64,000 nt of DNA from Eledone cirrhosa (Eukaryota): the NCBI GenBank assembly GCA_964016885.1, contig OZ024743.1:372062001-372126000 (forward strand), given 5' to 3'. Below are positions 25,114-62,374 of the stretch, one piece after another. The notes under the pieces are model-generated. The model did not search any database. It was not told the origin of the DNA and saw nothing but the letters and a program-made list of their open reading frames with translations. Positions within the stretch are counted from its first letter, which is position 1; the number at the start of each line of letters is the position of its first letter. Position numbers and translations under genes: made by a program.

Positions 25114-25282
25114 CTCATGGTAGCAAAACAGTCTTGAAGCCGCGCCAAGTTGATGGTATTGAGGGCGACTTCCAGAAGGGAGGGAGTAAATAACATTCGA
25201 GTGATTTGATTATCTTTTACGAATTGGCACAGTTGAATTGGGTCATAAATAACATTGTCGGGGATTATATACATTGGAATAC
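25114..25282 (-). CDS. Exon C of NRPS-like adenylation-domain gene
   Basis: Translates to (G)IPMYIIPDNVIYDPIQLCQFVKDNQITRMLFTPSLLEVALNTINLARLQDCFATM(R), with the IT....TPSLL motif typical of A domains. Acceptor TTTTTCAG|GT, donor AG|GTAGGT; 169 bp, phase 1-2. Confidence 0.9.
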
Positions 25283-25409
25283 CTGAAAAAATCAAACAAA
25301 CGCAATGTCTTAGAAAGAGTTAGAAAAGGAGTTCAAAGAAATCCTTTATTTTTTCTTCTTTTGTATTTCTTTTTTCTGCGAGATGTGACCATTATTATTA
25401 TCTTCATGA

Positions 25410-25625
25410 AGGCAGTGGATTGGCAGAATTGTTAGAGGGTTGCATAAATACTTTGCAATATTTGTTCTAGCTCTTTAAATTTTGAGTTTAAATTCTGCTG
25501 AGGTCAATTTTGCTTTTCATCCTTTCAGGGTTGATAAAATAAAGTACCAGTCAACAACTCAGGTTGATGTAATCAGATAACATTTACTCCCAAATTGCTG
25601 GCCTTGAGTCTAAACTAGAAATCAT
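25410..25625 (+). mobile_element. Old Nin-domain SINE
   Basis: GCTTTTCATCCTTTCAGGGTTGATAAAATAAAGTACCAG core. Confidence 0.7.
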
Positions 25626-26945
25626 TATCTTTGTTAAACATGGTTTAAGAAGTACACAATTTATCTTTAGACATATAATTAATTAATCGAGTAAAGGCAA
25701 GTTGTTCATAGGTTATTTTTATGAAACATTTCATTGATGATTAAAACAGTTTTTATCTTAACTTTTATCTGAAAAAAAAAACAACAAGAAAACAAACAAA
25801 CTTAGAAGTTTGAAAAATGAATGAACATGCACAAAGGCAATCAAGATAAAAACTAATGTGTTCAATTGATAATAAGAACTTCTGAAGGCTAATAACATCA
25901 GGCAAATGACCCTGTGCCCTATATAGGGATTAAATGAGAATCAATATGATTTTTTCTTCATATCCAAATTGTAATATATGACGGCAAAAGATGAAAAGGT
26001 AAGAAGAATCTGAAATGGATACAGAAAACAGTTTTGATCTTTGAGATGTCTAGTTGAGGACATAACAAACTCATTAGTGTTGGTGCCATAATAAAATGTT
26101 CCCAGTACACTCTGCAAAGTTGTAGGTGCTAAGATGGACATCCAACTATAGAATCAATGTGAAAGACAAAGTTCTTTGACCAACGTAGTCTCAGACTGTA
26201 ACAACCCATCCAAGTATGGAAAGGGAATGTACAATGATGATGATATCCTTTACCCCCCACCCCCCAAAAAAATCTAGATACATATTGAAGAATGAGGATG
26301 TTCAAGGCTCTAAGAATATTTATAAATGCTAGTATTGCTATTTTCTGGAAAATGCCTGTCTATCCTTTTAGGTAATTTGAGAAGGTCTTTTCAAAAGTGA
26401 TTCTGTATTATTACTGTTGTACCAATGGGATGATAGACACATTTAAAAAACCTTTTTGTGACCCTGTTTCTAATGAAAAGATTCTCTATTTCAATTAATT
26501 AACGAAACATTTTGAGTAATTGACTAAAATTATTAAGTATTTCATTAGTAATACAGTAACTTCACATATGGTTCTTATATAAAATAATGTTGGAATATAT
26601 CAATTTAACTAGTTTTAGTAGCAGTAGCAATGGTGGTTGTGGTGGTGGTGATGACAACTGCATTGATTTATCAGAATTTTACTTAAAGTGCTCTCAAGTT
26701 TTTATTGACATTATTATTGATATGTTCCTATTTCAGCATGCACTGATCAATAACAGAAGTTTAGAAGATTTGAGGAGAGGTTCATGTTGTTATAATATTG
26801 CCAGAAATATATAATAAAACACATTCACTATTTGGTTTAGGTTGGTTTTCACTTCATATATATTTCTATAATTAATTCAGCTGGCAATCAATGTTTATCA
26901 TTGATTGACCAACAGTTAAAAATATAAATATAAATATAGTTTCTC

Positions 26946-27530
26946 AGATTTCTATATAAGTCATTGTCATGTTTTTGCAGACACCCCCTGTACATTCTAT
27001 GCTATAGACTACATTTCTAGTTTTAAAATTTATTTGTGGATTTATTCTACATATTATACTTTTCTTATTAGTACAGTGGGTTTTCTTAAAGGGGTAAGTT
27101 TTACTGATCAGGGATTTTATGGTAGTTTCTGGCTTTTCTGCCACTTTAATCTATAAATGGGTCTTTCTAAATTGGTTAGCTAATTCACCTCCAGGGGTAG
27201 CATCCACGAACATGACACTCTGGTATCTCTGGTTGTCGTACCATGAAGTATCTTTCCCTATCTTATGTTTAGTCCTACCTATGCTCTTCCATGATTTGCT
27301 CCTGTATAGTGGGCAAATCCCTTTCATGCCCATCTCTATGAGGGTCTTATATTTCTCCGTGTCTCTTTGGTTGTAGCCAGAGAACTGCATGCAATTGATG
27401 AAGTGTTCTATGTGTCTCTCCATTTCAGTTGGATTGCACATGCGGGACACATTCTTCATCACTCTCACCAAGTCTGTGATCAGAATGTTAAACTTGGATA
27501 TCCCTGAGTTTTTGTGTAAAAGCTAAATTA
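26946..27530 (-). mobile_element. Penelope-like element fragment (different subfamily)
   Basis: MQFSGY, VMFVDATPGGELAN, C...C.IC......KTRNVVYSIEC: RT C-terminus to start of GIY-YIG. Confidence 0.65.
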
Positions 27531-29737
27531 ACTATATTGAATAATTCAATGAAGGGCAATATAGTATTCTATCTCTGATTAAAATAAATTTATGTTGAAT
27601 TTTTGTTAATTCTAGCTGTTTAACAGTCGAGTCTTATGTGTGGCTCTGTACACTATCATGTAAAACGTGGTAATCGATATACATGTAGTAGTTTGCCATT
27701 TGTTGAATCAATAAATACCCATTGATTTCAAAGATGTTTATTTATACTATATTGAATAAATAAATGATGAATGATATGCTGTTTTATATCCATGCTTTAT
27801 GAATAAGTTGATCCTGTACAAAGCGCTGTCAACTGAATTTCTAAAAATTCACAACTCTGAAAAGCAACTCAGCAACAAAACCAAATATCTGTCACATCAT
27901 CTTCAGAAGTATAAGAATGCATGGTAAAAATTTGAAAATGATATTGAACTGCCCACATGTTCAACTAACGGCATCAAAATGGGCATTTTTTTAGAAATTT
28001 TGAAATCACACATATTTCAAAAAATTATTCTGACACTCCCATAATAGTAATTAACATGGTTACTGCTCAGAAATGGTCTACTATATGCTAAGTAACAAGA
28101 AAGAAATTGTGGTTGCTTTATCTAGTGTGCCTATTGAGATAAAAAAAATACCTAAAAGAGGTATACATTTGCTGTACATTTAATTCTTGGCAATTTTCAG
28201 AGGCCTGTAGATGGAAAAATATACAAGATACACTTGATTTGATAATATATTATAAAAATATACAAGATACACTTGATTTGATAATATATTTGAACTAGTA
28301 TAGTTCAGAAAAAGTTAGCCCCAAACACATGATTTCAAAGTTGTGATTTCAAAAATGGCTGTCTCAAGTTGGTCCGAGAGACTCGTTTGGAAAAAAATGT
28401 TAAATTAATTAATATTATAAAGGCCTACAATTTCAAAACTATCAAAGATATTGACCTAATACTTTATATTTTTCCACCATATAGGTACAGGAGCTAGCAT
28501 GAATTTTTTCAGGGGGATCTGAGGAGGTGACCTGGGACCCTCTGGGTGATTTGACATGGAATGACCCAGGAGCAATACGCTTATGTATGCTGTTGCTTAT
28601 CAACATTGAACAAGCAGATCTATGATCTAATGCTTTCCAGCTATGACAATTCCAGCTTCTTTGTATACCCAGGATTACATTATTTAACGAATAGCTATTT
28701 TTTAAGGCAGTAGGACGTGTTTTGTTGGAGATTTGGCTATTTTAGTAACAGGTCAAATGACCACATAGAATTTCGCTTTTTGACTCATAATTTAACCCTT
28801 TCATGACCATATTTCTAACTATTTCAATAAATTAAGGAAGAATTTTGAAAAATTTACTAACATTGCATTACTCAGATAGTAACTTACCACATGATTCTGA
28901 TATAAAACAATGTTTTAAACCTTTAATCAAAATAGAAACTCTTTAAAATAGATGGTTTTGTTTCATAGCAGTAGAGCTGGTTTTGGCTGTTTCATAGAAT
29001 TAGAGCTGGTTTTGACTTGTATTCAAATTAAATGAAGTTCTATTTTAAATTATGTTCCAACAATAAAGATCTCATGGGATAGCTATAGTTGGAATGCTTT
29101 TGGATCATAGGTCTGCTTGCTCAGGGCTAACATGGGGCTAAACAACAACATTAATACAATTTTGGCCTTTAAATAGTAGAGAGTGATGAAGTAGAAAGGA
29201 TTGGGATAAACGACTGATAGAAGAGGTAATGGAAGGGAGACAGTGAATGACAGCTACATGCTGGTTGTTGGTAAAGTAATTGAATAGAAAAATGGCATGA
29301 TTGGGGAAGGTAGAGCAGTAAGAATGAGACAGTGTAATGGATGTGTGAGAGGGTGATGGGAGAAAGTGATAAGAGTGAGTGATGGGAATGAGAGAGTGAT
29401 GGGATGATGGGAGTAAGAGAGTGGTTGGAGAGAGGTAGTGACTGGTGCAAGAGAGATAATGATGGGAAAGTGGGAGAATGATGTATCTCAACAATTAGCA
29501 ATAGAGAAAGGAGTAATAAACATTATACCTGAAAAGATGATGGGATAGTTATGGCTGGAATGCTTTTGATCATAGGTTTACTCAATTTAAAGATGATCTT
29601 GGGTTAAGCAACATCGACAACATCAGTAATTAATTCTCGTAGATGGGATATTTATATTTTATCAGCCTAATGATGACAGAAACATATAGCGATGTGGTCA
29701 TTTATGTAAGGGTAAATGTTAATTTGACCATACATAC

Positions 29738-29869
29738 CTTTCAAAAGTGGACGTAGCATTTCCCAAATAAAGAAAACATTACATGCTTCTTTGTCACCTG
29801 GTTTGTAAGGAAATTCTTTATGTCGCCATATATACGAGAGAACTGCCCCTCTGTGTGGACACATAATTC
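29738..29869 (-). CDS. Exon B of NRPS-like adenylation-domain gene (A4 region)
   Basis: Translates to (G)IMCPHRGAVLSYIWRHKEFPYKPGDKEACNVFFIWEMLRPLLK(G). Acceptor TTTTCTAG|GA, donor AAAG|GTATGT; 132 bp, phase 1-1. Joins exon A as ...KPK-G-IMCPHRG. Confidence 0.9.
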
Positions 29870-29923
29870 CTAGAAAAACAACAAGAACAAAAACAACAAT
29901 GATAATGATAATAATAATGGTGT

Positions 29924-30026
29924 CTGATTTAGGCATGAGGCCAACAATTTTGAAGAGGGGGAAAGTTGATTAAATCGATCCCAACCTTCCCCCTCTTCAA
30001 AATTGTTGGCCTCATGCCTAAATCAG
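29924..30026. repeat. Short inverted repeat (about 45-bp arms) from a SINE tail
   Basis: CTGATTTAGGCATGAGGCCAACAATTTTGAAGAGGGGGAA ... TTCCCCCTCTTCAAAATTGTTGGCCTCATGCCTAAATCAG. Confidence 0.9.
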
Positions 30027-30029
30027 TAG

Positions 30030-31760
30030 GCAATCCCAGTTGTCACCTATAGTTTCAACATCATAAATTGGAACATTAATGAAATAAAGAAAAGGGCGGT
30101 GGATTGGCAGTATCGGTAGAGAGTCAGACGCCATGCTTTGCAGCATAGTTACGTCCCTTTACGGTCTGAGTTCAAACCCCGACGAGGTTGACTTTGCCTT
30201 TCATCCTTACGGGGTCGATAAAATAAAGTACCCGTAATGTACTGGGTAATTGCTGGCCTTGTGCCAAAAGTAGAAACAATTAATGAAATAAAGAAAATGG
30301 ATAGAAAAATCAGGAAACTTCTGACCTCTAATAAACTACATCACCCAAAAGCATTTGTGGATCGCCTTTGTCTCTTAGACAAAACAGAAGTAGAGGTATG
30401 ATCCAGCCTGAGCTGTCATGCAAAAATATCAACCATTGAACTCAAACAATACATGAAAATGACAAATGACTGGATAATGAAAATGGTTGCAGATCATGAA
30501 AGGAAGAAAAATCATAGTTTGAAAATGATGGTGATTCTGTAATTAAGGCTGCAAAGAACATCAAAATGTTGTCAAAATATGAAGGTCAATGGAGACTGTG
30601 TACTGAATGGGAACAAAAACCACTGCAAAAACTACATCACTCAAAAGCAGATGTGGATCACCTCTATCTCTCTAGACAAATGGAGGTAGAAGAATGATAC
30701 AGCTTGAGCTGCCATGCAAAATATCAACCATTGGTCTAAAACAATACCTGAAAATGACAAACAACTGAATAATGAAAATGGTTGCAGATCATGAAAGGAA
30801 GAAAAATCTACATTCAATTACGATGAAAGTAGGCTGTTTGTGGAAGAATTGGGAACTTAGTCTGAAAATGATGGTGATTCTGCAATTAAACCTCAAAGAA
30901 CATCAAAATGTCGACAAAAATGTCAATGGAGACTGTGTACTAAATGGGAGCAAAACCACTGCATGGGCAGTATATGCTCTGTAGCAAAGAACGAAAGGGT
31001 TTCATTTTGGCTGCACAAGACCAGTGTCTTCCAATGCACAACTTTCAAGCCGATGTGATCAGAAATGGAACTAACTCAAAGTGTTAATTTTGTGATAAGC
31101 AAGTTGAGACCATTGACCTCCTGGTTTCTGGCTGCAAAATATTGGCTTCCCAGGAATATAAAACTAGGTATGATAGAGTAGGGCAATACTTCCACTGGGT
31201 AATGTGCAGGTTTTATGGTCTGAAAACAACATCACTCAGATAAAGTAACAGTAGGCAAGAACGTGACAATCCTATGGGATTTCCCTGTGAACACCGACAA
31301 CAGACCTGATATAATTGTGAAGGACCATAAAGAGAAAACATGTTTCTTAATTGACCTGAGCATTCCATCAGATCGTAACATCTCGAAAGTGTTCAGAAAG
31401 CTCAGTAAATATAAAAATCTGACAATTGAAATTGAGAAAATGTGGCATCTTAAAACCTGTACAATACCAGTGATAGTCAGCACACTTGGAATGATATAAA
31501 AGAGTACTGAAAAATATTTGTACTGGATACCTGGAAAGCCATTTCAGGAAGAGAAAAAACAGTGCTGACTGGTACTGCCCATGTCCTAAGAAGGGCATTA
31601 TCAATTTAAAAACCTTGCAAAGACATTTACTGTGGTTTGTGCCCTTATGGCATCCTTTGTATGACAACTGATTCTAAAATATGTGTATTATTAAATTTTG
31701 CCTCCGGTGTCAGGTTGACACTCGGCATGATTTGGAAAAGAAGCAGAATTCAAAGGAAGT
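30030..31760 (+). mobile_element. Degenerate Dong/R4-like LINE with internal duplication of about 300 bp and nested SINE
   Basis: MDRKIRKLL..LHHPKA, KPLHGQY, GFILAAQDQ.L, C.FC....ETID.L.SGC, TILWDFPVNTD..PDIIVKD....FLIDLSIPSD. Confidence 0.8.
30093..30280 (+). mobile_element. Nin-domain SINE with TSD ATTAATGAAATAAAGAAAA
   Basis: Full head GGGCGGTGGATTGGCAG, B-box GAGTTCAAACCC, Nin core; flanking direct repeats. Confidence 0.85.
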
Positions 31761-31949
31761 AACAAATAATAATAATAATTTGGGCATATTTTCCAGTTAA
31801 ATAACATAAATGACTGAGTTATCAAATTCATAATAATTTTTTTTTTTTTTTGCAAAATCTCTAGCAATTTGTTAGGTGAAGAGTTAATTGGCCTAGCATC
31901 AGTCCTTGATCTCAGAGGCTCAATATATCATGCAGGATTCTGGCAGTGT

Positions 31950-34190
31950 TAGTGATAGCAGAAATTTGAGCACTACCTATGAAATCAGGGATCCGAAGGC
32001 TTTTGATGAAATACGTAAGCATTTAGAGACCATGCCTAGCACCCCAGTGATGATTGGCTAGACTTCTATCTCTACATAACGCTCAGTTCTGATAGCACCT
32101 GCAAGGTCTGCATAGTTACTGATCTTTTCCATTTCCTTTTCAGCCACATTGTGGTTTCGAGGGATTGCAATATCAATTAAAATCCATTTTTTGGGTCGCT
32201 TGTTTTTGCAACAATATCAGGGTGGTTATGTTGGATATGTTTGTGGTCTTGATCTTGAGCTCCCAAAATAACTCTACTCCCTCATCTAATAGGCAGGATC
32301 CAAAAGGAGTACGTTTGTACCATTGACATTGCGATTCAATGTATTTTTGTAAAACTCCGATGGATTCTTTTTGCTATAAGATCATGCCATATTTTGTAAC
32401 ATTGTTTTACTAATTGCTCACATCCACTAACAATATGTTTTACTGATTTGTCTGTTTATGGCATACTCTTCAAAGTGGGGAAAAATTTCGTCCATCGATG
32501 TTAGCTTTTACCCAATTTGTTCTGAGTGCCTTGTCTTGTGCAGCAGTAATATTCTCAGTGCTCTTTTTAACTCAACCCGACCTAAGCTAAAGCCAATACC
32601 TATGATCAGTAGTGTTATTAATTGTAGCTGAAAATTTGCCATGAAGAGCTTTTTCTTTCAATATATATTATTGTTTCTCTCTAAAGGCTTTGGTGAATGC
32701 TTTCTTACCTGGACATTATGTTATAAAGTCTTCCCTCAGAACTTCTTTGAGTAATGGTTCTTCAGTTAATGTTAGATAGTCCCACAAGCTGTTATACTCA
32801 CTACGTACACATTGCTCAACTGAAATTAAACCTCTCCCACCTTCCTTCTACAGCATAGCAATATTTGCCCTTGGGTGTAAGCACCCATTTTATGTTAAGA
32901 TCTTATGAGTGCATCTATCAATTCTTCCAAGGTCTTGTTTTATCCAATTAACTATTCCAGCACTATACCTCACTACTCCCAAAACCCATTGTGTTATTCC
33001 AGATGTTACATTTCCTGTATATAGTTTTCAGTTGAACAATTTTCTCACTCTCCTGATGTTCTCCTTTTCAATCTTTTCCTTCATTTCATTTGTTTTAATT
33101 CCTGGATCCTGCAACATGCCCAAGTATTTGTAACCTGTCCCTTCAATTTGTGACATTCTTTCACCACCAGGTATTTCAGTAACATCGATCCCAACCAATT
33201 TGCTCGTTTCCATTGACCCGGATATGGCACTTGTCTAAACCAAACTTTATGCCTATATCATTGGATACAATCCTCACTGTGTGGACAAGTGAATGAAGTT
33301 CTCTTTCAGTATGGCCATACTAACTTTAAATTGCCCATGAACAATAGATGGTTTATAGGCATGGACACTTTCGAAATGAAATATCCACAATTTGTTTCTA
33401 TAATAAGGGGAATCAGTATAATGATAAACAACAAAGGTAACAATGAGTCTCTTTGGAAAATACCTTGTCCGATGCAAACCTCTCCTAGAACTTCATTACC
33501 AGATGACATTTCTGTTCTCCATTGCTCCATGCATTTCCTTGATGTTATCTGCTACACCTAAGAGTGGGGCACCATGTCGTAGGCTTTCTTGTAATCTATG
33601 AAAGCCATTGCCAAGTTTTCATTCTCTTGCAAATAGCTTTATCAATTAAAACTGGTCCTTTGTTCCCTTTGGACTCTCTATGACATACTTTCTGTTCATT
33701 TGGGAGGAAATTTGCCTCATTCAGATGTTCGTATATCTTGTTCCTGATAATCCCAGTCAAGTTTCCAAATAATTGCCAGGCCCGTAATTGGCAGGTCAGT
33801 AATTGGCAGGTCAGTAATTGGCAGCCACATTTTCCTTTGCTTTGTCCTTCACTATAAGGACTGTCTGACTCTTGGTCATACAATTTGGAACTACTCCTAA
33901 CTGCAAGCACTTGTTCAAGTGCTAAGTGATCCTATCATGTATGTCACTCATTTTTATGTACCAGAATCCTTGGAGGCTTTTCAGCTTACCATTCCTATAG
34001 AAAACTGTTTAACAACACTGGAGTTAATGCTGATGTTATCTTGTTTCACATTCTGGTTTAGTTGATGTCTTACTCTTTGAAGCCACTCTGTCTCATCCTT
34101 ATAAGAAGGTATTCCATAGATGTTCCAAAATTCAGATGCCTCAACTGGATCAGGAAGCATTCTCTGTTTTGCATTTGCCATTGAGTTCTT
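31950..34190 (-). mobile_element. Degenerate Dong/R4-like LINE
   Basis: FLPNEQK, GIFQRDSLLPLLF, INHLLFMGNLKL, YKYLGM, and C-terminal endonuclease remnants. Confidence 0.8.
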
Positions 34191-34199
34191 TATAATAAT

Positions 34200-37100
34200 A
34201 ATAATGTTTTCTTTATTAACCACAAGGGTTGACACAAAGCAAAACATTAAGGACAGCAGAGGATGGTACAAATGGGCCTTTCTGCATGTAAAATACAAAA
34301 ATATAAAACAAAAACAAAAGATGTAAGGAAAAATTCCTCAATAGAGGGTGACTTCCAAGGGTCCCTTGTGGAGAAAGCCCACAAAAGCCACTGTCACCCT
34401 GACCGCTAGGGCAAGCGCCCTCTCCCAGTTTTCCTCCTACGATACTACAGGCACTCGTTCAGAGCAGCCCCATTCACATGGACCATTCTTGCCTCTCTCA
34501 AGCCACCTTTCAACAAACTGGGTGGAAGGCAGCACTTCTCTCTCCACTGTGATTTTACTGTTCAGGTGAAACCTGAAAAGATTAATGAGGGCGTTGCCAA
34601 AGAGGAAAGTGCTCATCTTCAATCCTTTCAGACATGTCCACCATACAACCTCTTTTACTATGACCACTAAGCAGATAAAAACTGCTTGCCTTTCCTGGTT
34701 AAAGGAAGGAAGCGGGGCAATCTTCACGATGGACTCAGTTGATAGCCGGATCCGTCCTACACACGACCACAGATGTTTGACTTAAACCCACAAGTCAGTG
34801 ATGTTCGGATATTAGATGAGTGCATGCAGGACGGTCTAGTCGCCCCAAGCACATCTCAGACAGGTCTGGCTGACGGCACTTCCATGCCTGTAAAGTTTAT
34901 CTCGAACTGAGAGGCAGGGACTTCTGGAAGTTATCCATGGGCCCTGGACCGAAAGTCTTCCCAAAGGACGTGGTCTCCACTAACCTTCTATAGAATGCCA
35001 AGGTGGAGTTTCCACCAATCTCAGTGCCCGGTTGGCAAAGGGCAGTAAGCGCTTGAAGAGATTTCAGTTTCCAAGTGCTCCCTCTTGATCTTCGTTTGAC
35101 CCAGGACTGCAGCTCCATCAAGGAGATGAGCTGGAGAAAAATGAGCCTAGCAAAAAGTTACCACACCTGTTTACTGTCGAGGAAAATCTGGAGATGTCAT
35201 AGCCTCAGTGCATGTCTGCGCGTCATCAGCCACAGCATGCACAGTCCTCCACGCAGCAGGTGTTGACAGCAGATGAATCACCTGACCATCGGAGCACATC
35301 CCTTCCACAAAAAGCGAAAGAGCAAACACCCCAGTGCAATCAGACAAAGCTTAAGAGAAGACACAATGGTCAGGCGGTAGTAGATAACGATGTGATGTAT
35401 GCGTTCGCCAACTCCATCCGACCTTTCAGGGATAGCTTTCTCTCAGCCCATTTCTGGATAAGAGAGGCCACACTGCTTGTCTCCTCATCCCAGTTTTTGT
35501 CCTCTGTCTGGAGGTCCGGACCAAACCAGCCCCCCTAGCAATTTAACTGGTACTTCCGTCCAGTGCCCGACAAAGCTGTTGGACAGTATGAACCTGCCTC
35601 TCCAGGTGCCCACCAACTCTCTTCCTGGCTAATCATTGTTCCTGTTACTGCCTTGTATTCTCTTAGTGTAGTGCCAATCACCTTGATGTGTTGGCTGCTC
35701 AACACCAATGCGAGATGTCGGCATCTACTGACATGCTTCTCTAACATCCCAGTTCACACGGGATGCCCAACAACCTTTCCAGTTTCTGCAGCAATGGCTT
35801 GAGAGACAGTATGTACAACAGGGACGAGAGGGGAAATCGTTAGTGGACCAAGCGCATGATGTTGAACGGTTCTGAAAGGTGACTGTTCACTCTCACAACA
35901 GAGCATATGTTGCTGTGCATGGCAGCAATCCAGCCTCTGAAGATGGGCTCAAAGCCAGCTGCCCTCAGGACCACCGCCAGATAACGATGGTTGACCCTAT
36001 TGAAAGCTTTTAACTGATCTAAATTGATCAAGGCCTCACCCGTGCTAGGTTCCCTAGCTACCCTCTCCATGATGTATCACATTAGGTGGAGGTTGTTGTG
36101 GATAGATCTGTCAGGAATGGCACATGTCTGTGCTTCCCCCACCAGACCACCAACAACAAGCGCCAACCTCTTTGCTAGCACCTTGGCCAAAATCTTGAAA
36201 TCTGTGTTTAGCAGAGTTATGGGCCTGAAATTTTCTATGTTGTCGCCCTTGTCCGGGTCCTCTCTCAGCAGTGCCACTGCTCCTTGGCTCACAGAGCTTC
36301 GAATTCTCCTGTTCTGCTGCCAGTTACATAGCCATCTGCCAAAACGTCGCTGAACAAATCTGGCATATGAACATAAAACTCATGGAGCAGACCATCCAAA
36401 CCAGGTGATTTACCCATCGTGCAGTCATTGCCTCCCATACTTCAGTGGCTGACAACTGTGGCAGACCATCAAGGTAGGCACTAAAGTTAATTCTGCAATT
36501 CGGCCTGCTGCTGCCCCCGAACAGCTGAGCGAAGTGGCACACATATTTGCTCGGGAGCATCGTGGTTGCCACGACGCACCTCCGCCACTTGAGCCCATTG
36601 AATGGCTTTTGTTCCCTTGTGTCTGAGAGCATGTACCCTAGCTCTGACAACGCAGCATTTGTGCTTTGCATTGATGAATTGGTCGAGAGCCAATCTCGCC
36701 GCAAGCACATTGGTTGCGATGTCTTTACTAAGCGCTTTGTCTAATTTTCTAACTAGTTCCCCCTCTGCTCTATTCTTCTCTATTGATAATGCCTTACTAA
36801 ACCTAATGGACTCTATTCTAATCGCCCTTTTCAGGGTGAACCACCATTTGTTGTTGATGACTGCCCCCATCAATACCCGCTTAACTAATTTGCTAATGTG
36901 GTGATTGTAGACTTTGCGCAATGTGAGCCAGGTCCCCGTCTATGAAGCCTATCTAAGTCGACCACACAGATCACAAATTTGTAGTCTGTGTAGTCAACTA
37001 TCTTGAATTGTAGACACCCTATGCTAAATATATATACTTCTTTACAAAATACCCTATCTAGATACGATCTGGATGATCTGATGCAGTTTGTCCATGTCCA

Positions 37101-49860: not shown

Positions 49861-49914
49861 CTTACAAATAAATATATGTTAAAACAAAAAAATAAATATA
49901 AATATATATATACA

Positions 49915-52900
49915 TACATTCTCACACATATGTATATACCTTATATTATATATACATATACTAACTATTTAAAAACTATCTAGTTATAATAAACTAATTA
50001 AATAAATGTTTTTAACCCCCTCCACACAAGTTTAAAAGATAACAATTATATAACCAATAATATTTTATATACTCTATAATGATTAATTTATAACACTACT
50101 ACAATATTAAAACAACCCTTAATTTATCAACAACCTTAATTACCTCCCTTTGTTATTAACCCCCTTTACAACTTCCTGTGTAAACTTATAAAATTAAACA
50201 ACATAACGGTTCACCAACAGCTCAATAACGGTTAATACAAACCCTAGAAAAGATAATTTGTAGAAAAAAAATGCATAAGATAATATACCTAAAATAACAA
50301 CATGGCCAGTAATTCAGCAGAATTTACATTTAACAAACAAACACCTATTGACTATAATCGACTCAAAATAATCCCATGGTTAATAGCTGTGAGTAACAAA
50401 CAACATATACACATACATACGAACTACAACACAAAAACACTTAAATGAAAATCACATACCCAACTCTATCATGTGCTTTGCATTACACCTTACATAACAA
50501 ATACCTTCATTATCACCACATGCCTCTCTAACAAATTGCACACTATCTTAAACATTTATAACAATTATAACATGCTATAACACCCCACACAAAATATGTG
50601 TACTTCAACTGCATTATAAAAGTAAAAACATATATAGCCTAGATTACGATACATATAGAGAATTTATATATAAAGAACTTTATAGGAACTACAAAAAAAC
50701 ATCTCATAAAAACCTGGATGACATAAATATTGAAGCCTGTAGTTTAATATGTAAATTAGGACTAGAGAGATATACTCAACCGTACACCCCTAATCCCCCA
50801 CGATTCTCTCTGAAAGACCATAAGGATGACTTCAATACTAACCCCTCAATTAGACTTATTTGCCCATCCAGATCCGACATTGGTATTATTAGTAAAAAAT
50901 TTTTAGATAAAGTAATCCCCCAAATTAAACAAAAAATTCATTTTAACCTCTGGGGAAACACTAGTGAAGTAATCGAATGGTTTAATGGTATTAATGAAAA
51001 TAATAATAAGAACATACGTGAACGGCAAAGCATAAGCGAACTAAGGAAAACATTAGAAATAAGAGGGATCAGATGTTGTTTACTCGAGAGAAGGCTATGT
51101 TGGTATGGTCACGTGATGCGCATGAAAGACGACAGCTGTATAACAAAGTGCAGGGCAATAAAGATAGACGATAGCTACGGAGTAGGCAGACCCAGAAAAA
51201 CCTGGGACGAGCTGATAAATTCCGACCTCACACACTTACACCTCTCCAAGACAATATCACTGGACCGAGACCTTTGGCGGTACTCAGTAATAGAGAAGAC
51301 CCGCCTTACCTAAATACAAAGTAAAACCTACTACAGTCAGTAGGCATCTCTAACAAAATACACCCCGTCCCACCACCCCCACCCCATCCACACCACCCCT
51401 TTCAATGTAAAGATATGTTGGTGCCACAACATCCAGGCCGAAATAAATGAGATCGTGTAGGTGTCATGACAAAAAAACACACAGTCCACGCTGTAATGTG
51501 GCCGTGTAGGCAACACGGTAAAAACCTCCCAGCCCCACACTGTAAATGTGGTTGGTGTTAGGAAGGGCATCCAGCTGTAGAAAACCTGCCAGACAGTCCA
51601 CGCTGTAATGTGGCCATGTAGGCAACACGGTAAAAACCTCCCAGCCCCACACTGTAAATGTGGTTGGTGTTAGGAAGGGCATCCAGCTATAGAAAACCCG
51701 CCAGACAGTCCTATGCGAGCAAGGCAATCACTCTTGCCTAAAGTGGGAAAACCCCCGTCCAAACCCATGCAAGCGTGGATCACGGACGTTAAACGTTGAT
51801 GATGATGATGAAATTCATCCAATTTGATATAAACTCCTACTACACCTCTATTTCACCTATCCTCCTAAATAAAGCACTAATAACGGCCATGAACAATAGT
51901 GAACTCACTAGATCCCAGGTAGATATAATCCTTGTGGCCAGGAAAACAATAATTAAATTTGAAGACCAACTAATGGACCTGCAAGAATACACCCAACAAC
52001 TTCTATATCACCATGGGATCTAGTGACTCAGCACAGGTAACCGACTTAGTCGGTCTATTTCTCTTAAACAAAATACACAAGAACCTACCTTACCTCAACG
52101 GTGGCCTCTACCGAGACAACACACTTTTCCTCTTAGACTATAAAAAGTTCAATATAGAAAGAACTAGAAAACAATTACATAAAATATTTAAAAACTATAA
52201 CTTAGGTATCACTTTAGATAAACACACCAAAAATGTTAACTTCCTAGACGTCACTCTCTACTTAGACTCTAAAAACTACACACCTTATCATAAACCTAAT
52301 GAAAAACTCTTCTATGTTATTACCAACTCTAACCACCCTAAATCTGTACTGACCTCAATCATTAAAGGAGTATCTAATAGAATCTCTAGCTTTTCTTACA
52401 ATGAGAATATATTTAATCATAACTCCCAATACTATAATGAAGCCTCAGCCTGTTCCGGCCATAGAGATAAAATTAAATTTAAACCTAAATCGTCAACCAC
52501 CCATAGACAACCTAATATAATTTCACACAACATGGTCATGAATAAAAGTACATATGATCATAGTATTGAAAATCCTGACTCCTATACAAAGGGCACCATA
52601 AAAAAGTTAAATCACGCCACAGCAATAATCCTAAGAAACACCACAGAAAGAAAATATAGATAGGAAGGAACCTAACACCACACTAAACAGTAGTATGAAT
52701 AACAACCATAAGAAGAATAGAAGAAGTAGCACATTTTTTAACCCTCCGTTCAACTTAAATGTATCAACAAACATACCAAAAGCTTTCTTCTCTACTTTCT
52801 TCTCTACCAAAACTTCCCAACTAACCATAAATACCACAACCTATTTAACAAAAACACAATTAAAATATCCTACTCCACCACGCCTAACATAGCACACCAT

Positions 52901-53557
52901 ATAGCCAGCACCAACAAGAGAAAGATTGAAAAGTACTTCAAATTACACCAAAGTAATAATGTCCAGCATAGAAATAACCTGAACAATAACACAGTACAAG
53001 ACCATACAGCAAGTTACACTAATAATACCAATAATAATAATACTTACCATAATCATAACACTAGAAGTAGAAACAGAAACAACCACTCAAATGCACACCC
53101 CCTTAACCAGTATACTAGTTACCAAAACAATTGTAACTGTAGGCCTAACAAGACATGCCCATTAAATAAGAACTGCCTAATTAAAGACATTGTCTACTCT
53201 GGTACAGTAACCGCTAATCACATCTCGAAAGTATATATAGGCTCAACATCGAATAGCTTTAAGACCAGATATAATTCACACTTTCATTCGTTCAGAAATC
53301 CTAAACTTAGAAACGTAACCTCAATATCCACATACATACACTCATTAAAATCATGTAACATACCATACACCTTAAAATGGGAAGTGATAGCTAAGGCCCC
53401 TTCATATAGACTACCTAACAAATTTTGTAACCTTTGCATCCTTGAGTCTAAAAATATTATTCACTCTAACCTTAGCCTACTAAATAGGAAATCAGAGATC
53501 TTCTACACGTGTCCACATTACCATAGATTCTCGTTCCACTACTTCAAACCTAGTAAC

Positions 53558-53599
<42 letters not shown>

Positions 53600-53940
53600 T
53601 AAAAATAAAGACCAATGTTGGAGATAACACTAGACCCCCACCGTGTAATTTATCCAACAAGACCTTTATTTATCCAACTAGACCTTCACGAATATAGGAC
53701 TACACCTTAATTAAAAGACCACACTGACCTACATACAGTCAATAAACCCCTGTGTGATCTCTTACCTTATACAATTAAAAGATTTAAATAATATAGACAC
53801 TCTAATAAACTCTCAATATACAACACCAACTAAATAGCAGACAACTGTGTATAACTCCAATTACTCCAGTATATATTATGCAACTCACTATCCTGTCATA
53901 AAAAACTTCAACTATCTCTACACAATCTGTATGCATGCGT
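49915..53940 (+). mobile_element. Penelope-like element (RT plus GIY-YIG), degenerate, interrupted by RTE
   Basis: SLKDHKDDF.TNPSIRLICPSRSDIGIISK, KFIQFDINSYYTSI, MGSSDSAQVTDLVGL, GGLYRDN, VNFLDVT, YHKPN, FFNPPFNLNVST, CNC...CPL..CL, YIGSTS..FKTRY..H, CNLC. Confidence 0.9.
51011..51810 (+). mobile_element. RTE LINE 3' fragment inserted in PLE RT
   Basis: Splits ...WFNGINENN from KFIQFDI...; has a tandem duplication in its 3' UTR and a (GAT)n tail. Confidence 0.9.
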
Positions 53941-53954
53941 GTATATATATATAT

Positions 53955-54291
53955 GGAGGCACATGGCTTAGTGGTTAGAGCATTGGCCTTGCAATCGAAA
54001 GGTTGTGAGTTCAATTCTCAGACCTGGTGATGTGTTGTTTCCTTGAGCAAGACACTTTATTTCACATTGCTCCAGTTTACTCAGCTGTAGAAATGAGATG
54101 ATAGGGACTGGGTTCCCTATCATTCCACTGCAAAGTGGTCGTGGAGGTGCCACGGCAAAAAAGCACCCAGCACTCACTGTAAATGAGGTTGGTGTTAGGA
54201 AGGGCATCCAGCTGTAGAAATCAAGCCAGAATCAGTTCCCGTCCCACCCTTGCAAGCAGGGAAAAGTGGACGTAAAATGAAATGATGATGA

Positions 54292-54295
<4 letters not shown>
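53955..54295 (+). mobile_element. tRNA-derived SINE with RTE tail
   Basis: Highly similar to 19381-19750. Confidence 0.85.
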
Positions 54296-54341
<46 letters not shown>

Positions 54342-54344
54342 GGT

Positions 54345-55490
54345 GCAATAAGTAGCAACAAGTGCCCTCAAAATACTAGCTTTCAACTGCGCAGAGGGTC
54401 CTATAGAAATAGTGGACAGCTTCCGTTACCTGCGTGACAAAATCAGCAGTGGGGGAGGGTGCTCTGAAAGTACAGTAGCTAGAGTCAGAACTGGATGGAA
54501 AAAGTTCAGAGAGCTTATACCACTATTAGCCGCTAAAGGGTTCTCCCTAAAAATGAAAGGCAGGTTGTATGATGCCTGCATACGAACAGCAATGTTGCAT
54601 GGCAGTGAGACCTGGGCATTGTGTGCAGAGGATATACGCAGACTGGAGAGAAACGAAGCTTGCATGCTCCGCTGGATGTGTAATAGTAATATATGTGAAC
54701 GGCAAAGCATAAACGAACTAAGGAAAAAATTAGAAATAAGAGGGATCAGATGTTGTTTACTCGAGAGAAGGCTACGTTGGTATGGTCACGTGATGCGCAT
54801 GAAAGACGACAGCTGTATAACAAAGTGCAGGGCAATAAAGATAGACGGTAGCCACGGAGTAGGCAGACCCAGAAAAACCTGGGACGAACTGATAAATTCC
54901 GACCTCACACACTTACACCTCTCCAAGACAATGTCACTGGACCGAGAACTTTGGCGGTACTCAGTAATAGAGAAGACCCGCCTTACCTAAATACAAAGTA
55001 AAACCTACTACAGTCAGTAGGCATTTCTAACAAAATACACCCCCGTCCCACCACCCCCACCCCATCCACACCGCCCCTTTCAATGTAAAGTTATGTTGGT
55101 GCCACAACATCCAGGCCGAAACAAATGAGATCGTGTAGGTGTCATGACAAAAAAACACACAGTCCACGCTGTAATGTGGCCGTGTAGGCAACACGGTAAA
55201 AACCTCCCAGCCCCACACTGTAAATGTGGTTGGTGTTAGGAAGGGCATCCAGCTGTAGAAAACCCGCCAGACAGTCCACGCTGTAATGTGGCCGTGTAGG
55301 CAACACGGTAAAAACCTCCCAGCCCCACACTGTAAATGTGGTTGGTGTTAGGAAGGGCATCCAACTGTAGAAAACCTGCCAGACAGTCCTATGCGAGCAA
55401 GACAATCACTCTTGCCTCAAGTGGGAAAACCCCCGTCCAAACCCATGCAAGCGTGGAACACGGACGTTAAACGTTGATGATGATGATGAT
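54345..55490 (+). mobile_element. RTE LINE 3' portion (open frame 54412-54990)
   Basis: DSFRYL.D.IS..GG, LHGSETW, RRLRWYGHV, GRPRKTW; UTR with tandem duplication; (GAT)n. Confidence 0.92.
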
Positions 55491-55519
55491 GTGTGTGTGT
55501 ATGTGTATGCATGTGTGTG

Positions 55520-57565
55520 TGTCATCATCATCATCATCATCACCGTTTTACGTCCGTTCTTCCACGCTAGCATGGGTTAGACGGGTTGTCCTGTTGTGGG
55601 CAGTGTCTGGTCGGCTGACCATGCCTTGCTCATACAGGAACTGATCTGGCTTGATTTCTACAGCTGGATGCCCTTCCTAACACCAACCTCATTTACAGTG
55701 AGTGCTGGGTGCTTTTTCGTGGCGCCTACACGTCCACTTTACAGTGTGGGCTGGGTGCTTTTTTGCCGTGGCACCTCCACGACCACCTTGCGGTGGGGGG
55801 GGGGGCATATTGTTTATATGCTTCAGCATGTACCCATGGGAGGTCGGGTACCCTGTATTACTGCGTGACGCCAGAAGTCACGGTCGTGTGTCATTGACTT
55901 TGAGAGGTGTAGTTGGGTAAGGTCGGCTTTTATCACCTCATCCCAAGTCATCTTGGGTCTCCCCACTCCGCGGTTTCCATCAACTTCTAGTGCTCTGCAC
56001 CTTTTTATGCAGCTGTCATCCTTCATACGCATCACATGTCCATACCAGCGTAACCGCCTCTCCTGCACGCAGCATTTGATTCCTCTTATGCTCAGTCTCT
56101 CTCTCAATTCATTTATGCTTTGTCGTTCACGTATATTACTGTTACACATCCATCGGAGCATGCAGGCTTCGTTTCTCTCTAATCTACGTAAGTCTTCCAC
56201 CTTCAGCGCCCAGGTCTCACTACCATGCAACATCGCTGTTCGGATACATGCATCATACAGTCTGCCTTTCATTCTGAGGGAGAAGCCTTTTGCAGCTAGC
56301 AGTGGTAGTAGTTCCCTAAACTTCTTCCATCCCGTTCTTACCCTAGTTATTGTACTTTCTGAGCACCCACCTCCGTTGCTAATTCGGTCACCTAGGTAGC
56401 AGAAGCTGTCTACTGTTTCTACAGGGCCCTCCCAGAGATTGGTGGTACTTGTTTCCTGTGGCTGTTTGCTTGCTGTTTCAGCACAGCTGCTGCATGTGAA
56501 TCCTACATTCTTAATTAAGCTTCCTGAGATCCCGCTACATCTCTTGTGTACCCATTGTTTGCATTTGGGGCAAAGAATGGAGTTCCTACCTACACCTTTC
56601 CTACATACTGAGCAAGGCCATTTCCCTGAGGGGATCTGGGTTCTGTTTTCTCGTCTACTTATAAGGACCTTAGTCTTTGTCATGTTGACTTTGAGGCGCT
56701 TTCTCTCTAGTCCCTGCTTCCAGGTTTGGAATTTATTCTCTAGTTCTACCATAGATTCAGCTATGAGTGCGAGGTCATCAGCATACAGGAGTTCCCATGG
56801 GCATCCGGTCTTAAACTCCTCCGTTATTGCCTGCAGGACTATGATGAACAGGAGAGGGCTAAGAACAGAGCCCTGGTGGACCCCAACCTGTACGCTAAAT
56901 TCCTCGCTATACTCATTGCCAATCCTAACTTTGCTGACTGCTCCCCTATACATGGCTTGTACCGCTTTCACAAGCCATTCATCTACTCCTAGTTTTCTAA
57001 GAGCCCACCAGATTACTGCACGTGGAACTCTGTCAAAGGCTTTCTCAAGGTCGACAAATGCCAAGTAGAGTGGCTTACTTTTAGCTAGGTACTTTTCCTG
57101 TAATTGCCTCACAAGGAAGAGCGCATCAGTGGTGCCTTTCCCTGGAACAAACCCAAATTGCATCTCGTCTATATTCACCCGGTCCCTAATCAGCTGTGCT
57201 ATAACTCTTTCTGTTACTTTCATGACCTGGTCCATCAACTTTATACCTCTATAGTTTCCTCTATCTAGTGCATCGCCTTTACCTTTGTAGCAGTTGACAA
57301 TGATGCTACTGCACCAATCTTTTGGTATGGCCCCCTCTAGTATTACCTGGTTAACGATACGTGTGGTTATAGTGTGACCTACAGACCCAGATGCCTTCAG
57401 CATCTCGGCAGCTATACCCGATGGACCGGTTGCCTTCCCTATCTTCATATCTCTGATTGCCTTACTTACTACGCTGCCGCTGACTTGTACTGCTGGTCCC
57501 TCTATAGGGTCTACGTGGGGTAGGGTCTCTTCTTCCCATGCATTCTCCTCATTTAGTAATCTATC
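55520..57565 (-). mobile_element. Young 5'-truncated RTE LINE with uninterrupted RT frame
   Basis: ORF 55823-57619: NYRGIKL, QFGFVPGKGTTDALF, FVDLEKAFDRV, GVHQGSVLSPLLF, LLYADD, a C4HC3 Cys cluster, FCYLGD. Confidence 0.95.
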
Positions 57566-57604
57566 ATTTAGTAATCTCTGTGTATGTATATATATATATA
57601 TATA

Positions 57605-57752
57605 TACATTCTCACACATATGTATATACCTTATATTATATATACATATACTAACTATTTAAAAACTATCTAGTTATAATAAACTAATTAAATAAATGTT
57701 TTTAACCCCCTCCACACAAGTTTAAAAGATAACAATTATATAACCAATAATA
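57605..57752 (+). repeat. 148-bp direct repeat of 49915-50062
   Basis: TACATTCTCACACATATGTATATACC...TAACCAATAATA appears identical at both sites. Confidence 0.9.
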
Positions 57753-58040
57753 ATGTTCTAAACTAAAATTTGATCGTTTCAACACTTTGTATCTCGGCTC
57801 TGTAAAACACTTGAAAATTTGCATTGAGCCTTTTGTCATACCAGTAACTGGCTAGTACTTAGTACTACCCTACATATTTATAGTTATATCAAACATATAT
57901 AAATATAAATATTCTTATTACTATATATATATATATATTTATTTGCTCTATGGTTTTATATATCTTGATATATATACTATCCTTTTCGAGCCCTCTTCGG
58001 ATTTTAGTCTTCACATTTATTATTATTAATATATATATAT

Positions 58041-61000
58041 CATCATCATCATCATCATCATCATTTTACGTCCGTTTTTCCCTGCTTGCAAGGGTGGGAT
58101 GGGTCTTATTCAGCACAGCATCTCTCCACTTGTCACAGTCCTTCGTCATCTCCACCGTAAGTTTCAGCGATCTGAGGTCTGTTTTCTCACCACCTCTGCC
58201 TATGTTTTTCGTGGTCTACCTCTACCATGTCTTCCTTCAACTGGCATTTCCTGGCACTTCTTCACCCATCAGTCATCCTCCATGCGCATCACATGTCCAT
58301 ACCACCGCAGTCTCCTCTCTCGCACACTAAATTCTATGCCTCTCAGACACAGTTTCTCTCTCAACACATCCCTGCTGGGTCGTTCACGCACATTGACATT
58401 GCACATCCAACGGAGCATGCTTGCCTCATTTCTCACCAGCCGTTGCATATCCTCTGCAGTTGCTGCCCATGTCTCACTACCATGCATCATCGCGCTCCTC
58501 ACACAGACATCATATAACCGGCCTTTCGTACTCAGGGAGAAACCCTTCTTTGTCAGCAGAGGAAGCAGCTCCCTAAACTTCTTCCAACCCGTCCTTATTC
58601 TAGATACTATGGCCTCGGAACACCCCCCTCCCATGCTAATCTGATCTCCTAGGTACCAGAAGCTATCAACCACTTCTATAGCATCCGCCTGCATTTGAAA
58701 AATGTGTCTATCAATGCAACTTCTACTGTCTAATTTCCCTGTACATCTACTGCATACGTATTTCTCCCTACCTGTTAGTTTGCCTGCTATCCCACTACAT
58801 CTCTTGTGTACCCAGGATCTGCATTGTGTGCATTTTATAGAATTATGCCAGTTCCTTTTCTGCATATCGAACATGGCCATTTCCCTGATGGAATCAGAGT
58901 TTTGTCCTTTTTTCTACTCATCAACACTTTTGTCTTAGCTAGGTTCACTCTCAGCCTTCTTGCTTACAACTTCTGTTTCCATAGTCAGAATTTATTCTCT
59001 AGCTCCTCTACTGATTCTGCTATAAGAACCAGATCGTCAGCATAGAGAAGTTCCCATGGACAGCCAGTCTTAAACTCTTCTGTTATGGCTTGGAGGACTA
59101 TAATGAACAAGAGCAGGCTGAGGACCGAACCTTGATGTACTCCTACTTGTATCTGGAATTCCTCACTAAACTCCATTCCTACCCTGACTTTACTGAGAGT
59201 ACCTCTGTACAAAGTTTGCACTATCCTCACATACCTCAACACCTAGTTTCCTTAGCGACTACCAGATGACAGATTGGGGTACCCTATCAAAGGCCTTCTC
59301 TAGGTCAACAAAAGCTAAGTATAGTGGCTTATTCTTCTCTAAGAACCTCTCTTGCAATTGTCTCACCAAGAAGAGGGCATCTGTTGTACTTTTCCCAGGC
59401 ACAAAACCAAAGTGTATCTCATCTAGTTTGACACTTTCTCTAATTAGTTGTGCTAATATCCTTTCTGCAACTTTCATAACCCGATCCATCAGTTTTATAC
59501 CCCTATAATTGCTCTTCTCCAGAGCATCCCCTTTACCTTTGTAGCAATTTATGAGAATACTGCTGCACCAGTCTTTGGGTCCATATATAGACTGATTGAT
59601 GCGTGCAACCAGTTTAGTGCGTACGTCCCCTGATGCCTTCAGGATCTCAGCAACTATCCCTGACGGTCCAGTGGCCTTACCATTTTTCATTTCCTTAATC
59701 GCCTCTTGGACCCTATATTCATCAATCTCAATAGCTGATCCCTCTGTCGGGTCTATTGGGGGTAATTTATCTCTCTCCCATTCGGTCTCCACATTCATCA
59801 GTCTCTCATAATGACATTTCCAGGCCTCCTTTTTCTGATCATTCGTGACACTAAGTACACCGGTATCATTCCGGACACATTTATCTCCAACAACACCCTG
59901 ATTTGCATTGAGACACTGCACGCCTCTGATCTTCCTGTCGTAGAACATTAGCAAACCTCCTACTCTCAGCGCCCCTGCGTGCTAAGTACACCTGACATCT
60001 AGCTTCTCTCTTAGCGGCTGTATATCCTTCTCTACTCCCACCCTTTTTCCAAGCCTTCCATGCTAGTCTTTTGTCTCCAATGGCCCTATCTACCGTGCTG
60101 TTCCACCACCAGGTCACTCTCTGTCTGGTTGGAGCTCTGCTCCAGCCACAAGTTTCATCAGTAGCCTGCAGTAAGTTGTCACGTAAGAAATTCCAGTTAT
60201 CATTTATGTCATACGACACTAAATCGTCTTCTTTTTCGTCATACACATCTTGAAGGGCTTTCCTAAATTTGTATTTTAGTGGAAGGTCTTTTAGCTTCCA
60301 GACCTTTCTTCTCCACACCTTCCTGTATGTCTCATTCCATCTCTTGCTTACTGAGATATCACTAACGACTAACCTATGCTGTGGGGTACATTCTTCCCAA
60401 GGGTATGCCTTGGTATTTGACACCATCTGCCTGTCCTGCTGCCTAACTAGTAAGAAGTCAATCTGGCTTATGTGCTCGCCTGATTTGTGGTTGACAGGTT
60501 TCTGGAAGTTAGTGTTGCAAATGGTCAGTGTATTTGCATCACAAAATTCAAGAAGTCTCACTCCTTCTTCATTTCTTGAGCCGTAACCGTGCCCACCATG
60601 TACCCCAGTGTAACCATCCTGGCGCTGTCCAACATGACCATTGAAGTCCCCTGCTAGCATAACCATGTCTCCGTCCTCTGTCATTGCGGCTGTTTGTAAA
60701 AGTTGCTCGTAAAAGCAGTCTTTCTCTTCTTTGCCTAGGCCTCCCTGGGGAGCATAGGCAGAGATGATTGTCAGTAGTCTCCTGCCTACAACTAATCGAA
60801 GCTTAATTATTCGATTACTAACTCAAACTACCTCTATTGTCTTATTGATCCATCTCTCAGCCAGGAAAATGTCTACTCCCCCTAATCCATCATCCTTACC
60901 TACCTAGAAAAGCTTATAACTAAGATGTTTGCCTGCGATTAGTCTCACAGAGGCACCTCTCCATGCCTTCTCTCCAGCACCTCCGCTATTTCACCAGATC

Positions 61001-61080
61001 TACCTGTGAGAGTGCCAACATTAAGTGTCGCAACTCTGAGATGCGATGTCTTCATATTTTTGTTGTTCCTTTTCCTGTAG
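58041..61080 (-). mobile_element. Near full-length degenerate RTE LINE (APE endonuclease plus RT)
   Basis: LRVATLNVGTLTG, ISAYAPQ, LAGDFNGHVG, SQIDF.LVR, QHRLVV, FVDLEKAFDRV, LLYADD; frameshifts and an internal deletion near 58270. Confidence 0.92.
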
Positions 61081-62236
61081 TGTGATTGCTTGAAGACGGT
61101 TGGGGGGGGGGGTGTTCTCGCACATGGCCGCACCAGCCACCCCACTACCGTGCGCAGCTCTAACATGGTTAGTGCTATTGCTGTTTATGCAGTTATTGCG
61201 ATATATATTTGTTGTTGTGCTCATAAATGTTTTGGCATTAATACACTGGTTGGATGCCCTTTCTAACACCAGTGCCACTTTACAGCTTGGACTGGATGCT
61301 TTTATTCGTGCCACCAGCACTAGAGAGGATGTCTTACTGGACTCATGGGCCCTCTCTACCCCTCCATTTTACAGCATGGTCATAACAATAATAACAATAA
61401 CAATAACACTATTAATAATTATTAATTAATGCAATCGTGCAATGCTTGTGCATGAAGAATATTTTTAAAGTGAGGAAAGGCTGTGCACTGAGCCAATCCC
61501 ACTCTCTGAGCGACAGTAGCTATAACCCGAAAAGAAGAAAAGATCAACATCATCGGTAACTACTGAGCCGCAGGTTTTATGTCGGAGTTAACCCAGTTTC
61601 CTGAGATGCCTTCTCCTAGAAGAATGCTCTGACAAGGGCTAGGGGTCCTTCACTCGCAGTGGTTTAACTGCGCGATCGGGTATCCAGCCCAATTATTTCT
61701 ATGTCCCTGCACAAAAAAAAACAAAAACATATATATATATATATATATTTGACAGGAAGTGATGCTCTGACATAGCATGATTGATATGAGACTGGGGTTG
61801 TATATATACACAATGTTCATGTAAATAAACATTTTTATAGCCTTGCTATGAATTTTAGAAGTGGCAAATTTGACCACTAGTTTTTACCAACCAAGAGAGA
61901 GCATGCTAACAACCATTTTGGGTTCTTTAACCGTCTCATGACAATTCAAACATGATGGACAGAAAGTAATGGTGTGTGATCTAGTGGTAAGTGTATTGTA
62001 TTCATGATCATCAGGGCATGAGTTTGATTCCTGAGCAGAATGATACATTGTGTTCTTGAGCAATATACTTCATTCATTTTATGTTACTTTTCATAAGAGG
62101 ACTGGGGCTGCTATCATCAAAATACATAAGAAACCTCCTATGAGATGAAACCTCATAGGCAGCCAGCTAAACCATAAAAATGATGGATAGGATGGAAGAA
62201 AGTAAAGGATGAACGAAGTAACAGGAAGATAGTTAC

Positions 62237-62374
62237 CTTTAGGTTTCCCTGTTGTCCCTGATGAATAAGCTATGTAAGCCAGGTTACACCAATCCATTGA
62301 TATGGGCACCATGTGAGTAGACTCTTTGGCTTGAATTAGATCATTCAAATCTACAATAATTACATCAGCATTGT
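62237..62374 (-). CDS. Exon A of NRPS-like adenylation-domain gene (A3/P-loop motif)
   Basis: Translates to NADVIIVDLNDLIQAKESTHMVPISMDWCNLAYIAYSSGTTGKPK(G), which carries the AMP-binding signature LAY..YSSGTTGKPKG. Acceptor TTTCAG|AC at 62375, donor AAAG|GTAACT at 62236; 138 bp, phase 1-1. Confidence 0.92.

Follow-up and report, generated by a model that had tools for sequence, protein, structure and literature searches.

An intact, spliced ATRR-type gene in the octopod Eledone cirrhosa and the substrate predicted for its product

The locus considered here, a stretch of 64,000 nucleotides of the Eledone cirrhosa genome (the window), raises two questions: whether three short minus-strand exons lying far apart in it belong to an intact gene, and what substrate the encoded enzyme would use. 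In an earlier note, made from the sequence, these exons were read as pieces of an NRPS-like gene resembling the fungal glycine betaine reductase ATRR, with conversion of betaine towards choline as the proposed activity.

The exons are coding exons 3, 4 and 5 of 24. Exon 3 (62237..62374, minus strand, 138 bp, residues 122-167) holds the A3 P-loop YSSGTTGKPKG, and its match to the Pfam AMP-binding profile (E 1.3e-5) falls under the family cut-off. Exon 4 (29738..29869, minus strand, 132 bp, residues 168-211) encodes the A4 region NVFFIWE with pocket residues V199, F200 and W203, and exon 5 (25114..25282, minus strand, 169 bp, residues 212-267) supplies pocket residue L242. The P-loop and NVFFIWE bear out the identification of an A3-A4 core of an NRPS adenylation domain. 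Between the exons lie intron 3 (29870..62236, 32,367 bp) and intron 4 (25283..29737, 4,455 bp), both GT-AG and phase 1 on the minus strand; the remainder of the window is minus-strand intron sequence, part of intron 5 (1..25113, whole intron 43,554 bp) and part of intron 2 (62375..64000, whole intron 4,682 bp). Each exon is preceded by a pyrimidine-rich AG acceptor and followed by a GT donor; the end phases are 1, 1 and 2. The three phase-matched exons join in one frame without a stop and give the peptide originally described, CNVFFIWE included, although it comprises 145 whole codons rather than 146 residues. Among 20,000 random triples of equal lengths on the same strand, 71 gave stop-free joins by chance. 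Exon 5 alone shows a 91% match to an Argonauta hians protein (E 1.6e-23) and an 85% match to an Octopus sinensis protein, and has a single match in the 3.0-Gb assembly, at the window locus.

The statement that everything else in the region is decaying was too strong, as the introns hold retroelement frames, 646 and 611 aa long, that carry RT domains. Seven of the 25 long intron frames tested match Pfam families of LINE-type RT/endonuclease or Helitron helicase. Non-LTR retroelement frames occur at 16213-18780 (plus), 54352-54990 (plus) and 55823-60822 (minus); in this set the 646-aa RT is followed by a C2H2 finger and the 611-aa RT is found with a PHD finger. An older copy, 71-74% similar and with an endonuclease, and an inverted fragment also belong to the set. 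Intron 3, which contains LINE-type RT/endonuclease remnants, also holds a Helitron remnant (47212-49293, minus) with a PIF1 helicase and a Helitron-like N domain. An element of about 700-800 bp, whose 3' end carries a 112-bp tandem unit, is present in three copies (45057-45719, 51004-51813 and 54681-55491) that are 84-98% alike.

Four sequencing runs (X1, X13, X19 and X20) were compared with window positions 24500-30500. Run X1 comes from a relative, and its being RNA is a guess; in it a 4,536-nt contig carries exon 4 at bases 522-657 and exon 5 at bases 658-822. Exon 4 is thus joined to exon 5 at bases 657/658, without the 4,455-bp intron between them; the cut lies 4 bases off because GTAT occurs on both sides. 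The 29738/25282 junction, for which RNA-seq mapping had been proposed, is therefore seen joined in a transcript-like contig. In X19 a 4,721-nt contig matches exon 5 without a difference and ends at 25114; its depth is 34.6, with equal depth on exon 4, and neither an exon 4 piece nor the joint is among the matches listed. Run X20 reads unspliced across both borders of exon 5. Run X13 has zero cover on exon 5, and none of the pieces listed for it falls on exon 4 or 5. Very high-copy, SINE-like short repeats flank exons 4 and 5 at 25454-25554 and 30090-30282, and contig depth on them is enormous in each of the four runs.

The gene model was built on the window plus 200 kb of neighbouring sequence, where the whole O. 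sinensis protein is colinear on one strand (tblastn). In the splice-aware model there are 24 coding exons over 187,529 bp, and all 23 introns are GT-AG. The 3,849-nt coding sequence has its sole stop at the end and encodes 1,282 aa, of which 1,149 (89.6%) are identical, without gaps, to O. sinensis P0002. Coding exons 1-2 with the ATG (contig 372129851-372129057, minus) lie 3.1-3.9 kb past the right end of the window. Exons 6-24 (contig 372043559-371942323, minus), with the rest of the A domain, the other domains and the stop, lie 18-120 kb past the left end, the carrier Ser at about 45 kb and the stop at about 120 kb. A pyrimidine-rich AG acceptor 19 bases ahead of the ATG (contig 372129851) suggests an upstream non-coding exon.

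A single polypeptide carries, in order, adenylation (A), carrier (T), thioester reductase (R1) and SDR (R2) domains, as judged from the Pfam sets of P0002 and the genome's own R1 and R2 exons. The T and R domains, rightly placed outside the window beforehand, are found downstream in the full gene. Catalytic residues are kept throughout: the A10 Lys (K503), the T-domain Ser (S560), Y828/K832 in R1 and Y1190/K1194 in R2. The NADPH motifs TGATGFLG (657-664, R1) and TGASSGIG (1046-1053, R2) are intact, and all 16 pocket and catalytic sites checked are present. The gene of which exons 3-5 form part is intact, spliced and of the A-T-R1-R2 (ATRR) type. Two loci in the same genome, L021 and L022 (25-27% identity), were considered as paralogues and set aside, as they resemble ordinary acyl-CoA synthetases.

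Orthologues with the same domains, among the best 120 of 3,603 matches, occur in molluscs, nemerteans, annelids, cnidarians, Trichoplax, echinoderms, hemichordates, tunicates, flatworms, nematodes and several insect orders. Identity to the E. cirrhosa protein is 82.7% for Argonauta hians P0001, 57.4% for Haliotis rufescens P0031 and 51.4% for Nematostella P0073. RefSeq names the last two 'glycine betaine reductase ATRR' or '-like', whereas P0002 is annotated 'linear gramicidin synthase subunit D'; the RefSeq names are automatic. The Argonauta record stops short of R2 and its pocket is deviant (VFWLLSSDVK); an error in the gene model or genuine divergence could account for this. The suspicion that invertebrate homologues were already catalogued was sound, since they are annotated (Haliotis and Nematostella in RefSeq) and in print: Hai et al. 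(10.1101/559534) recorded atrr in invertebrates, and the available part of PMC11869996 mentions a molluscan glycine-betaine reductase homologue. The portion of PMC10531068 consulted, a survey of animal NRPSs, does not discuss ATRR. The gene is an ordinary further member of an ATRR family already recorded across invertebrates. General database searches added little: plasmid tblastn and PDB gave only general NRPS/SDR matches, with no ATRR-named entry among 60 of 106 PDB sequences, and the Atlas feature-cluster search returned only generic AMP-binding clusters.

An A-domain tree was built by a quick LG+G4 search with SH-aLRT support only from 94 of 95 rows, P0082 being dropped (A domain aligned only in part); PtNRPS1, Ebony, AASDH and Lys2 were not among the rows. 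The E. cirrhosa protein nests with Octopus and Argonauta (support 100) and, in this tree of sequences other than fungal ones, groups with nematode and other animal ATRRs. All 59 animal rows lie on one side of a branch (support 89), and six canonical NRPS rows stand apart from the whole ATRR-type clade (support 100). With the A-T-R1-R2 order and this placement in the animal ATRR clade, the family assignment proves right. No fungal ATRR is among the matches listed (the best 120 of 3,603, which are animal proteins and bacterial NRPSs; 120 Rubrobacter-type A-T-R proteins; 150 multi-module NRPSs), and no fungal-looking locus was found among the further ATRR-type loci examined.

The adenylation fold is common to Ebony, AASDH/ACSF4, Lys2 and acyl-CoA synthetases, and Lys2 is itself A-T-R, so that the gene might be one of these, or else a contaminant, a recent transfer or a pseudogene. 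Ebony and AASDH carry an amine-acyltransferase-like or PQQ-repeat domain C-terminal of A-T; here the C-terminus is a thioester reductase and an SDR, with no AANAT-like or PQQ domains. Against Lys2, TIGR03443 scores 396.6 bits on P0002 (cut-off 1030.1), and a second SDR is present. Contamination or a pseudogene is opposed by the full open frame on a 379-Mb contig, by the spliced contig and by the well-supported nesting with Octopus and Argonauta, and contamination or transfer also by the introns. The 24 animal-like metagenome loci compared have 93 inferred introns, of which 68 share their exact nucleotide position with the E. cirrhosa gene, whereas none of 12 does so in six other loci; the E. 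cirrhosa protein was the reference for this scoring, which may favour matches slightly. The position of the 32-kb intron 3 recurs in loci with coral as best named match and is common to coral-like, insect-like and tunicate-like loci. Such common positions argue for old vertical inheritance rather than contamination or recent transfer. ATRR is a gene of long vertical descent in invertebrates, and orthologues of it are publicly recorded. Together these alternatives have a negligible probability and were discarded on architecture, tree, introns, open frame and splicing; Ebony, AASDH and Lys2 fall to architecture, not to the tree. The results that were to count against the original reading (placement with Ebony, AASDH or acyl-CoA synthetases, missing T-R-R domains, lack of splicing) did not occur, and its view of a resident, spliced animal gene is upheld by 24 exons with GT-AG introns, the open frame, the spliced contig and the conserved intron positions.

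The ten-site code of the A domain is V199 F200 W203 L242 I271 C273 L297 D305 V306 K503 (VFWLICLDVK). The alpha-amino-binding Asp is absent, as had been noticed: Val199 occupies a column that is Asp in all six canonical NRPS rows. The betaine pocket of fungal ATRR consists of F201, W204, W270 and E304 (10.1101/559534), and these sites were mapped by motif and spacing to published residue numbers rather than by aligning a fungal sequence. The I271-D305 spacing of 34 equals that of fungal W270-E304 (10.1101/559534) and of diatom F285-E319 (in the accessible text of PMC13194791). The Aspergillus nidulans enzyme (AN5318; 10.1101/559534) likewise has A-T-R1-R2 with a C-terminal SDR, lacks D235 and has a catalytic Tyr in both reductases; the E. 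cirrhosa gene differs in its 24 exons over 187.5 kb. By this mapping F200 (F201), W203 (W204) and an acidic residue (D305, Asp for E304) are kept, and the third cage aromatic, fungal W270, is replaced by Ile271.

Site 271 is labile in animals, with Trp in 33 of 59 rows, Ile, Val or Leu in 23 and other residues in 3, and the tree demands at least 11 changes. Sites 200, 203 and 305 are nearly fixed (59/59, 58/59 and 59/59). Haliotis and Nematostella, which share the domains of the O. sinensis and Argonauta orthologues (the P0001 record lacking R2), keep Trp271; its loss is fixed in the octopods seen, and their nearest outside relative, P0003, retains Trp. The third cage aromatic belongs to the description of the betaine pocket in fungi and not to the architecture by which the ATRR family is defined. 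The code VFWLICLDVK recurs identically in Meloidogyne incognita P0082 and M. hapla P0103. According to the available part of PMC11050029, nematode ATRR pockets differ from that of A. nidulans at 5 of 10 sites, and the nematodes concerned carry the E. cirrhosa code; Bursaphelenchus has His at a site of the code, in agreement with the His/Ile site given there. M. incognita MiATRR, as described in the same portion, relieves betaine toxicity in yeast and has RNAi phenotypes. It belongs to the animal ATRR clade, with about 46% identity and the same code in P0082, but P0082 has 1,098 aa against 1,306 for the published protein and may not be the same one. Its source is a plant parasite rather than a marine mollusc, and its function derives from growth rescue and RNAi, a choline-product assay not being found in the part of PMC11050029 at hand.

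Gene structure, open frame, domain order, catalytic residues, one spliced junction and the animal-ATRR placement were observed directly; the catalytic steps all derive from homologues, that is, from the Aspergillus enzyme. On these grounds the E. cirrhosa protein is predicted, with somewhat better than even confidence, to reduce glycine betaine to choline. A PPTase would place phosphopantetheine on S560. The A domain would adenylate betaine with ATP, F200, W203 and D305 holding the trimethylammonium group, and the acyl group would pass to the T-domain thiol. R1 (Y828/K832, NADPH) would then free betaine aldehyde, and R2 (Y1190/K1194, NADPH) would reduce it to choline, the whole sequence consuming one ATP and two NADPH. 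The choline might enter phosphatidylcholine or acetylcholine synthesis, or serve to balance the betaine pool. A PF01648 (PPTase) profile search of the genome gave no matches, and an exon-split gene could escape it. Cephalopods have large betaine pools and make heavy use of acetylcholine. If the enzyme is fungal-like, they could draw choline from the betaine osmolyte pool for membranes and acetylcholine; choline-to-betaine oxidation has been described as one-way outside ATRR-bearing organisms (10.1101/559534). Literature searches found no in-vitro product assay of an animal ATRR and no paper on betaine replacing or converting to choline in insects.

The betaine reading is favoured by the retained F200, W203 and acidic residue 305, by the code shared with Meloidogyne, and by betaine and carnitine genes beside bacterial relatives. 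It is weakened by Ile at the third cage site, since the activity of fungal ATRR depends on cation-pi binding (10.1101/559534). The substrate is less certain than was implied at first. The same A-T-R1-R2 chemistry might act on another onium acid (beta-alanine betaine, proline betaine, butyrobetaine, DMSP or dimethylsulfonioacetate), Trp to Ile at 271 widening the pocket and the product being the matching alcohol. This possibility, which we hold to be doubtful, gains from the exchange of the cage Trp at so labile a site, from the further divergence of the Argonauta pocket (VFWLLSSDVK) and from BurA, which keeps an acidic pocket residue and prefers DMSP (PMC7496086, as far as accessible). However, one labile site beside three nearly fixed ones also fits tolerated drift, the code is that of Meloidogyne, and neither beta-alanine betaine nor DMSP is accepted by the fungal enzyme (10.1101/559534). 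A tentative extension, no likelier, is that the third cage Trp was lost repeatedly in animal ATRRs because the substrate shifted, and that the octopod enzyme turns a larger betaine or sulfonium acid into an undescribed animal choline analogue; if so, the shift could possibly feed cholinergic or phospholipid chemistry with that compound.

A different reaction, in which an aromatic amino acid or aryl acid would be reduced to the amino alcohol, is suggested by PtNRPS1 of the diatom Phaeodactylum tricornutum, which, in the part of PMC13194791 available, has the same four domains, two sequential reductions, an NVFF.WE motif and L-Trp as reported substrate (giving tryptophanol). Its pocket has Phe/Asn/Glu where E. 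cirrhosa has Ile/Cys/Asp, and its motif set, PtNRPS1 not being in the tree, is nearer to the Rubrobacter-type branch than to the animal one. Aromatic amino acids were also poor PtNRPS1 substrates in the hydroxamate assay reported in that part, and the alpha-amino-binding Asp is absent from the E. cirrhosa protein; an aromatic substrate is improbable. A second molluscan enzyme, FmtATR (bur-ox), is also a single-module NRPS with reductive release, but it is Fmt-A-T-R, acts on tyrosine and is classed by its authors apart from the molluscan betaine-reductase homologue (PMC11869996, accessible part).

Betaine as substrate can also be approached through bacterial members of the same A-domain clade. 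Among the 53 intronless loci examined, hybrids of the TE-A-T-KS-AT-KR type or cut pieces of them account for 43, and A-T-R types for the other 10. Beside the hybrids a choline/carnitine O-acyltransferase occurs in 13 loci, a BCCT transporter in 2 and a ProU-type betaine transporter in 1 (16/43); 27 of the 43 are without such a neighbour, many loci being cut short. The loci with neighbours are L049, L056, L062, L070 and L083 from metagenomes and L126, L129, L132-L135, L137, L139-L141 and L144 from genomes (e.g., Arcobacter, Filomicrobium, Desulfobacteraceae). The acyltransferase family is found in none of 14 control genomes; it is single-copy in two genomes where it is adjacent, lies on another contig in a third and is absent from two. 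Hybrids with an Ile/Val pocket keep the acyltransferase neighbour in 9 of 16 cases; as the five included in the tree group together in a single clade, the neighbour pattern is likely one event. The hybrids differ from the E. cirrhosa protein at pocket sites 273 and 297, and their neighbourhood lends independent but indirect support to a betaine-type substrate.

Betaine plus malonyl and ketoreduction would give carnitine, and the hybrids may therefore act as carnitine synthases in prokaryotes, or else make gonyol as BurA does. The BurA-A domain of Burkholderia thailandensis (PMC7496086, in the part seen) resembles that of E. cirrhosa in being of the onium-acid kind, in lacking D235 and in having an acidic residue in its pocket; BurA itself is an NRPS-PKS hybrid that loads DMSP towards gonyol, and not a terminal double reductase. 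No paper on an NRPS-PKS carnitine synthase was found in the literature, and the hybrids are probably more interesting than the animal gene itself.

Among the A-T-R types, locus L146 adjoins a ProU-type betaine transporter. Stand-alone bacterial relatives of the A-T-R type in which the third cage site is Trp are L146-L151, L153 and L154 as well as P0282-P0401 (Desulfobacterota, Rubrobacter, Entotheonella). One of them adjoins both a ProU-type transporter and a PPTase; ATRR had been described as exclusive to eukaryotes.
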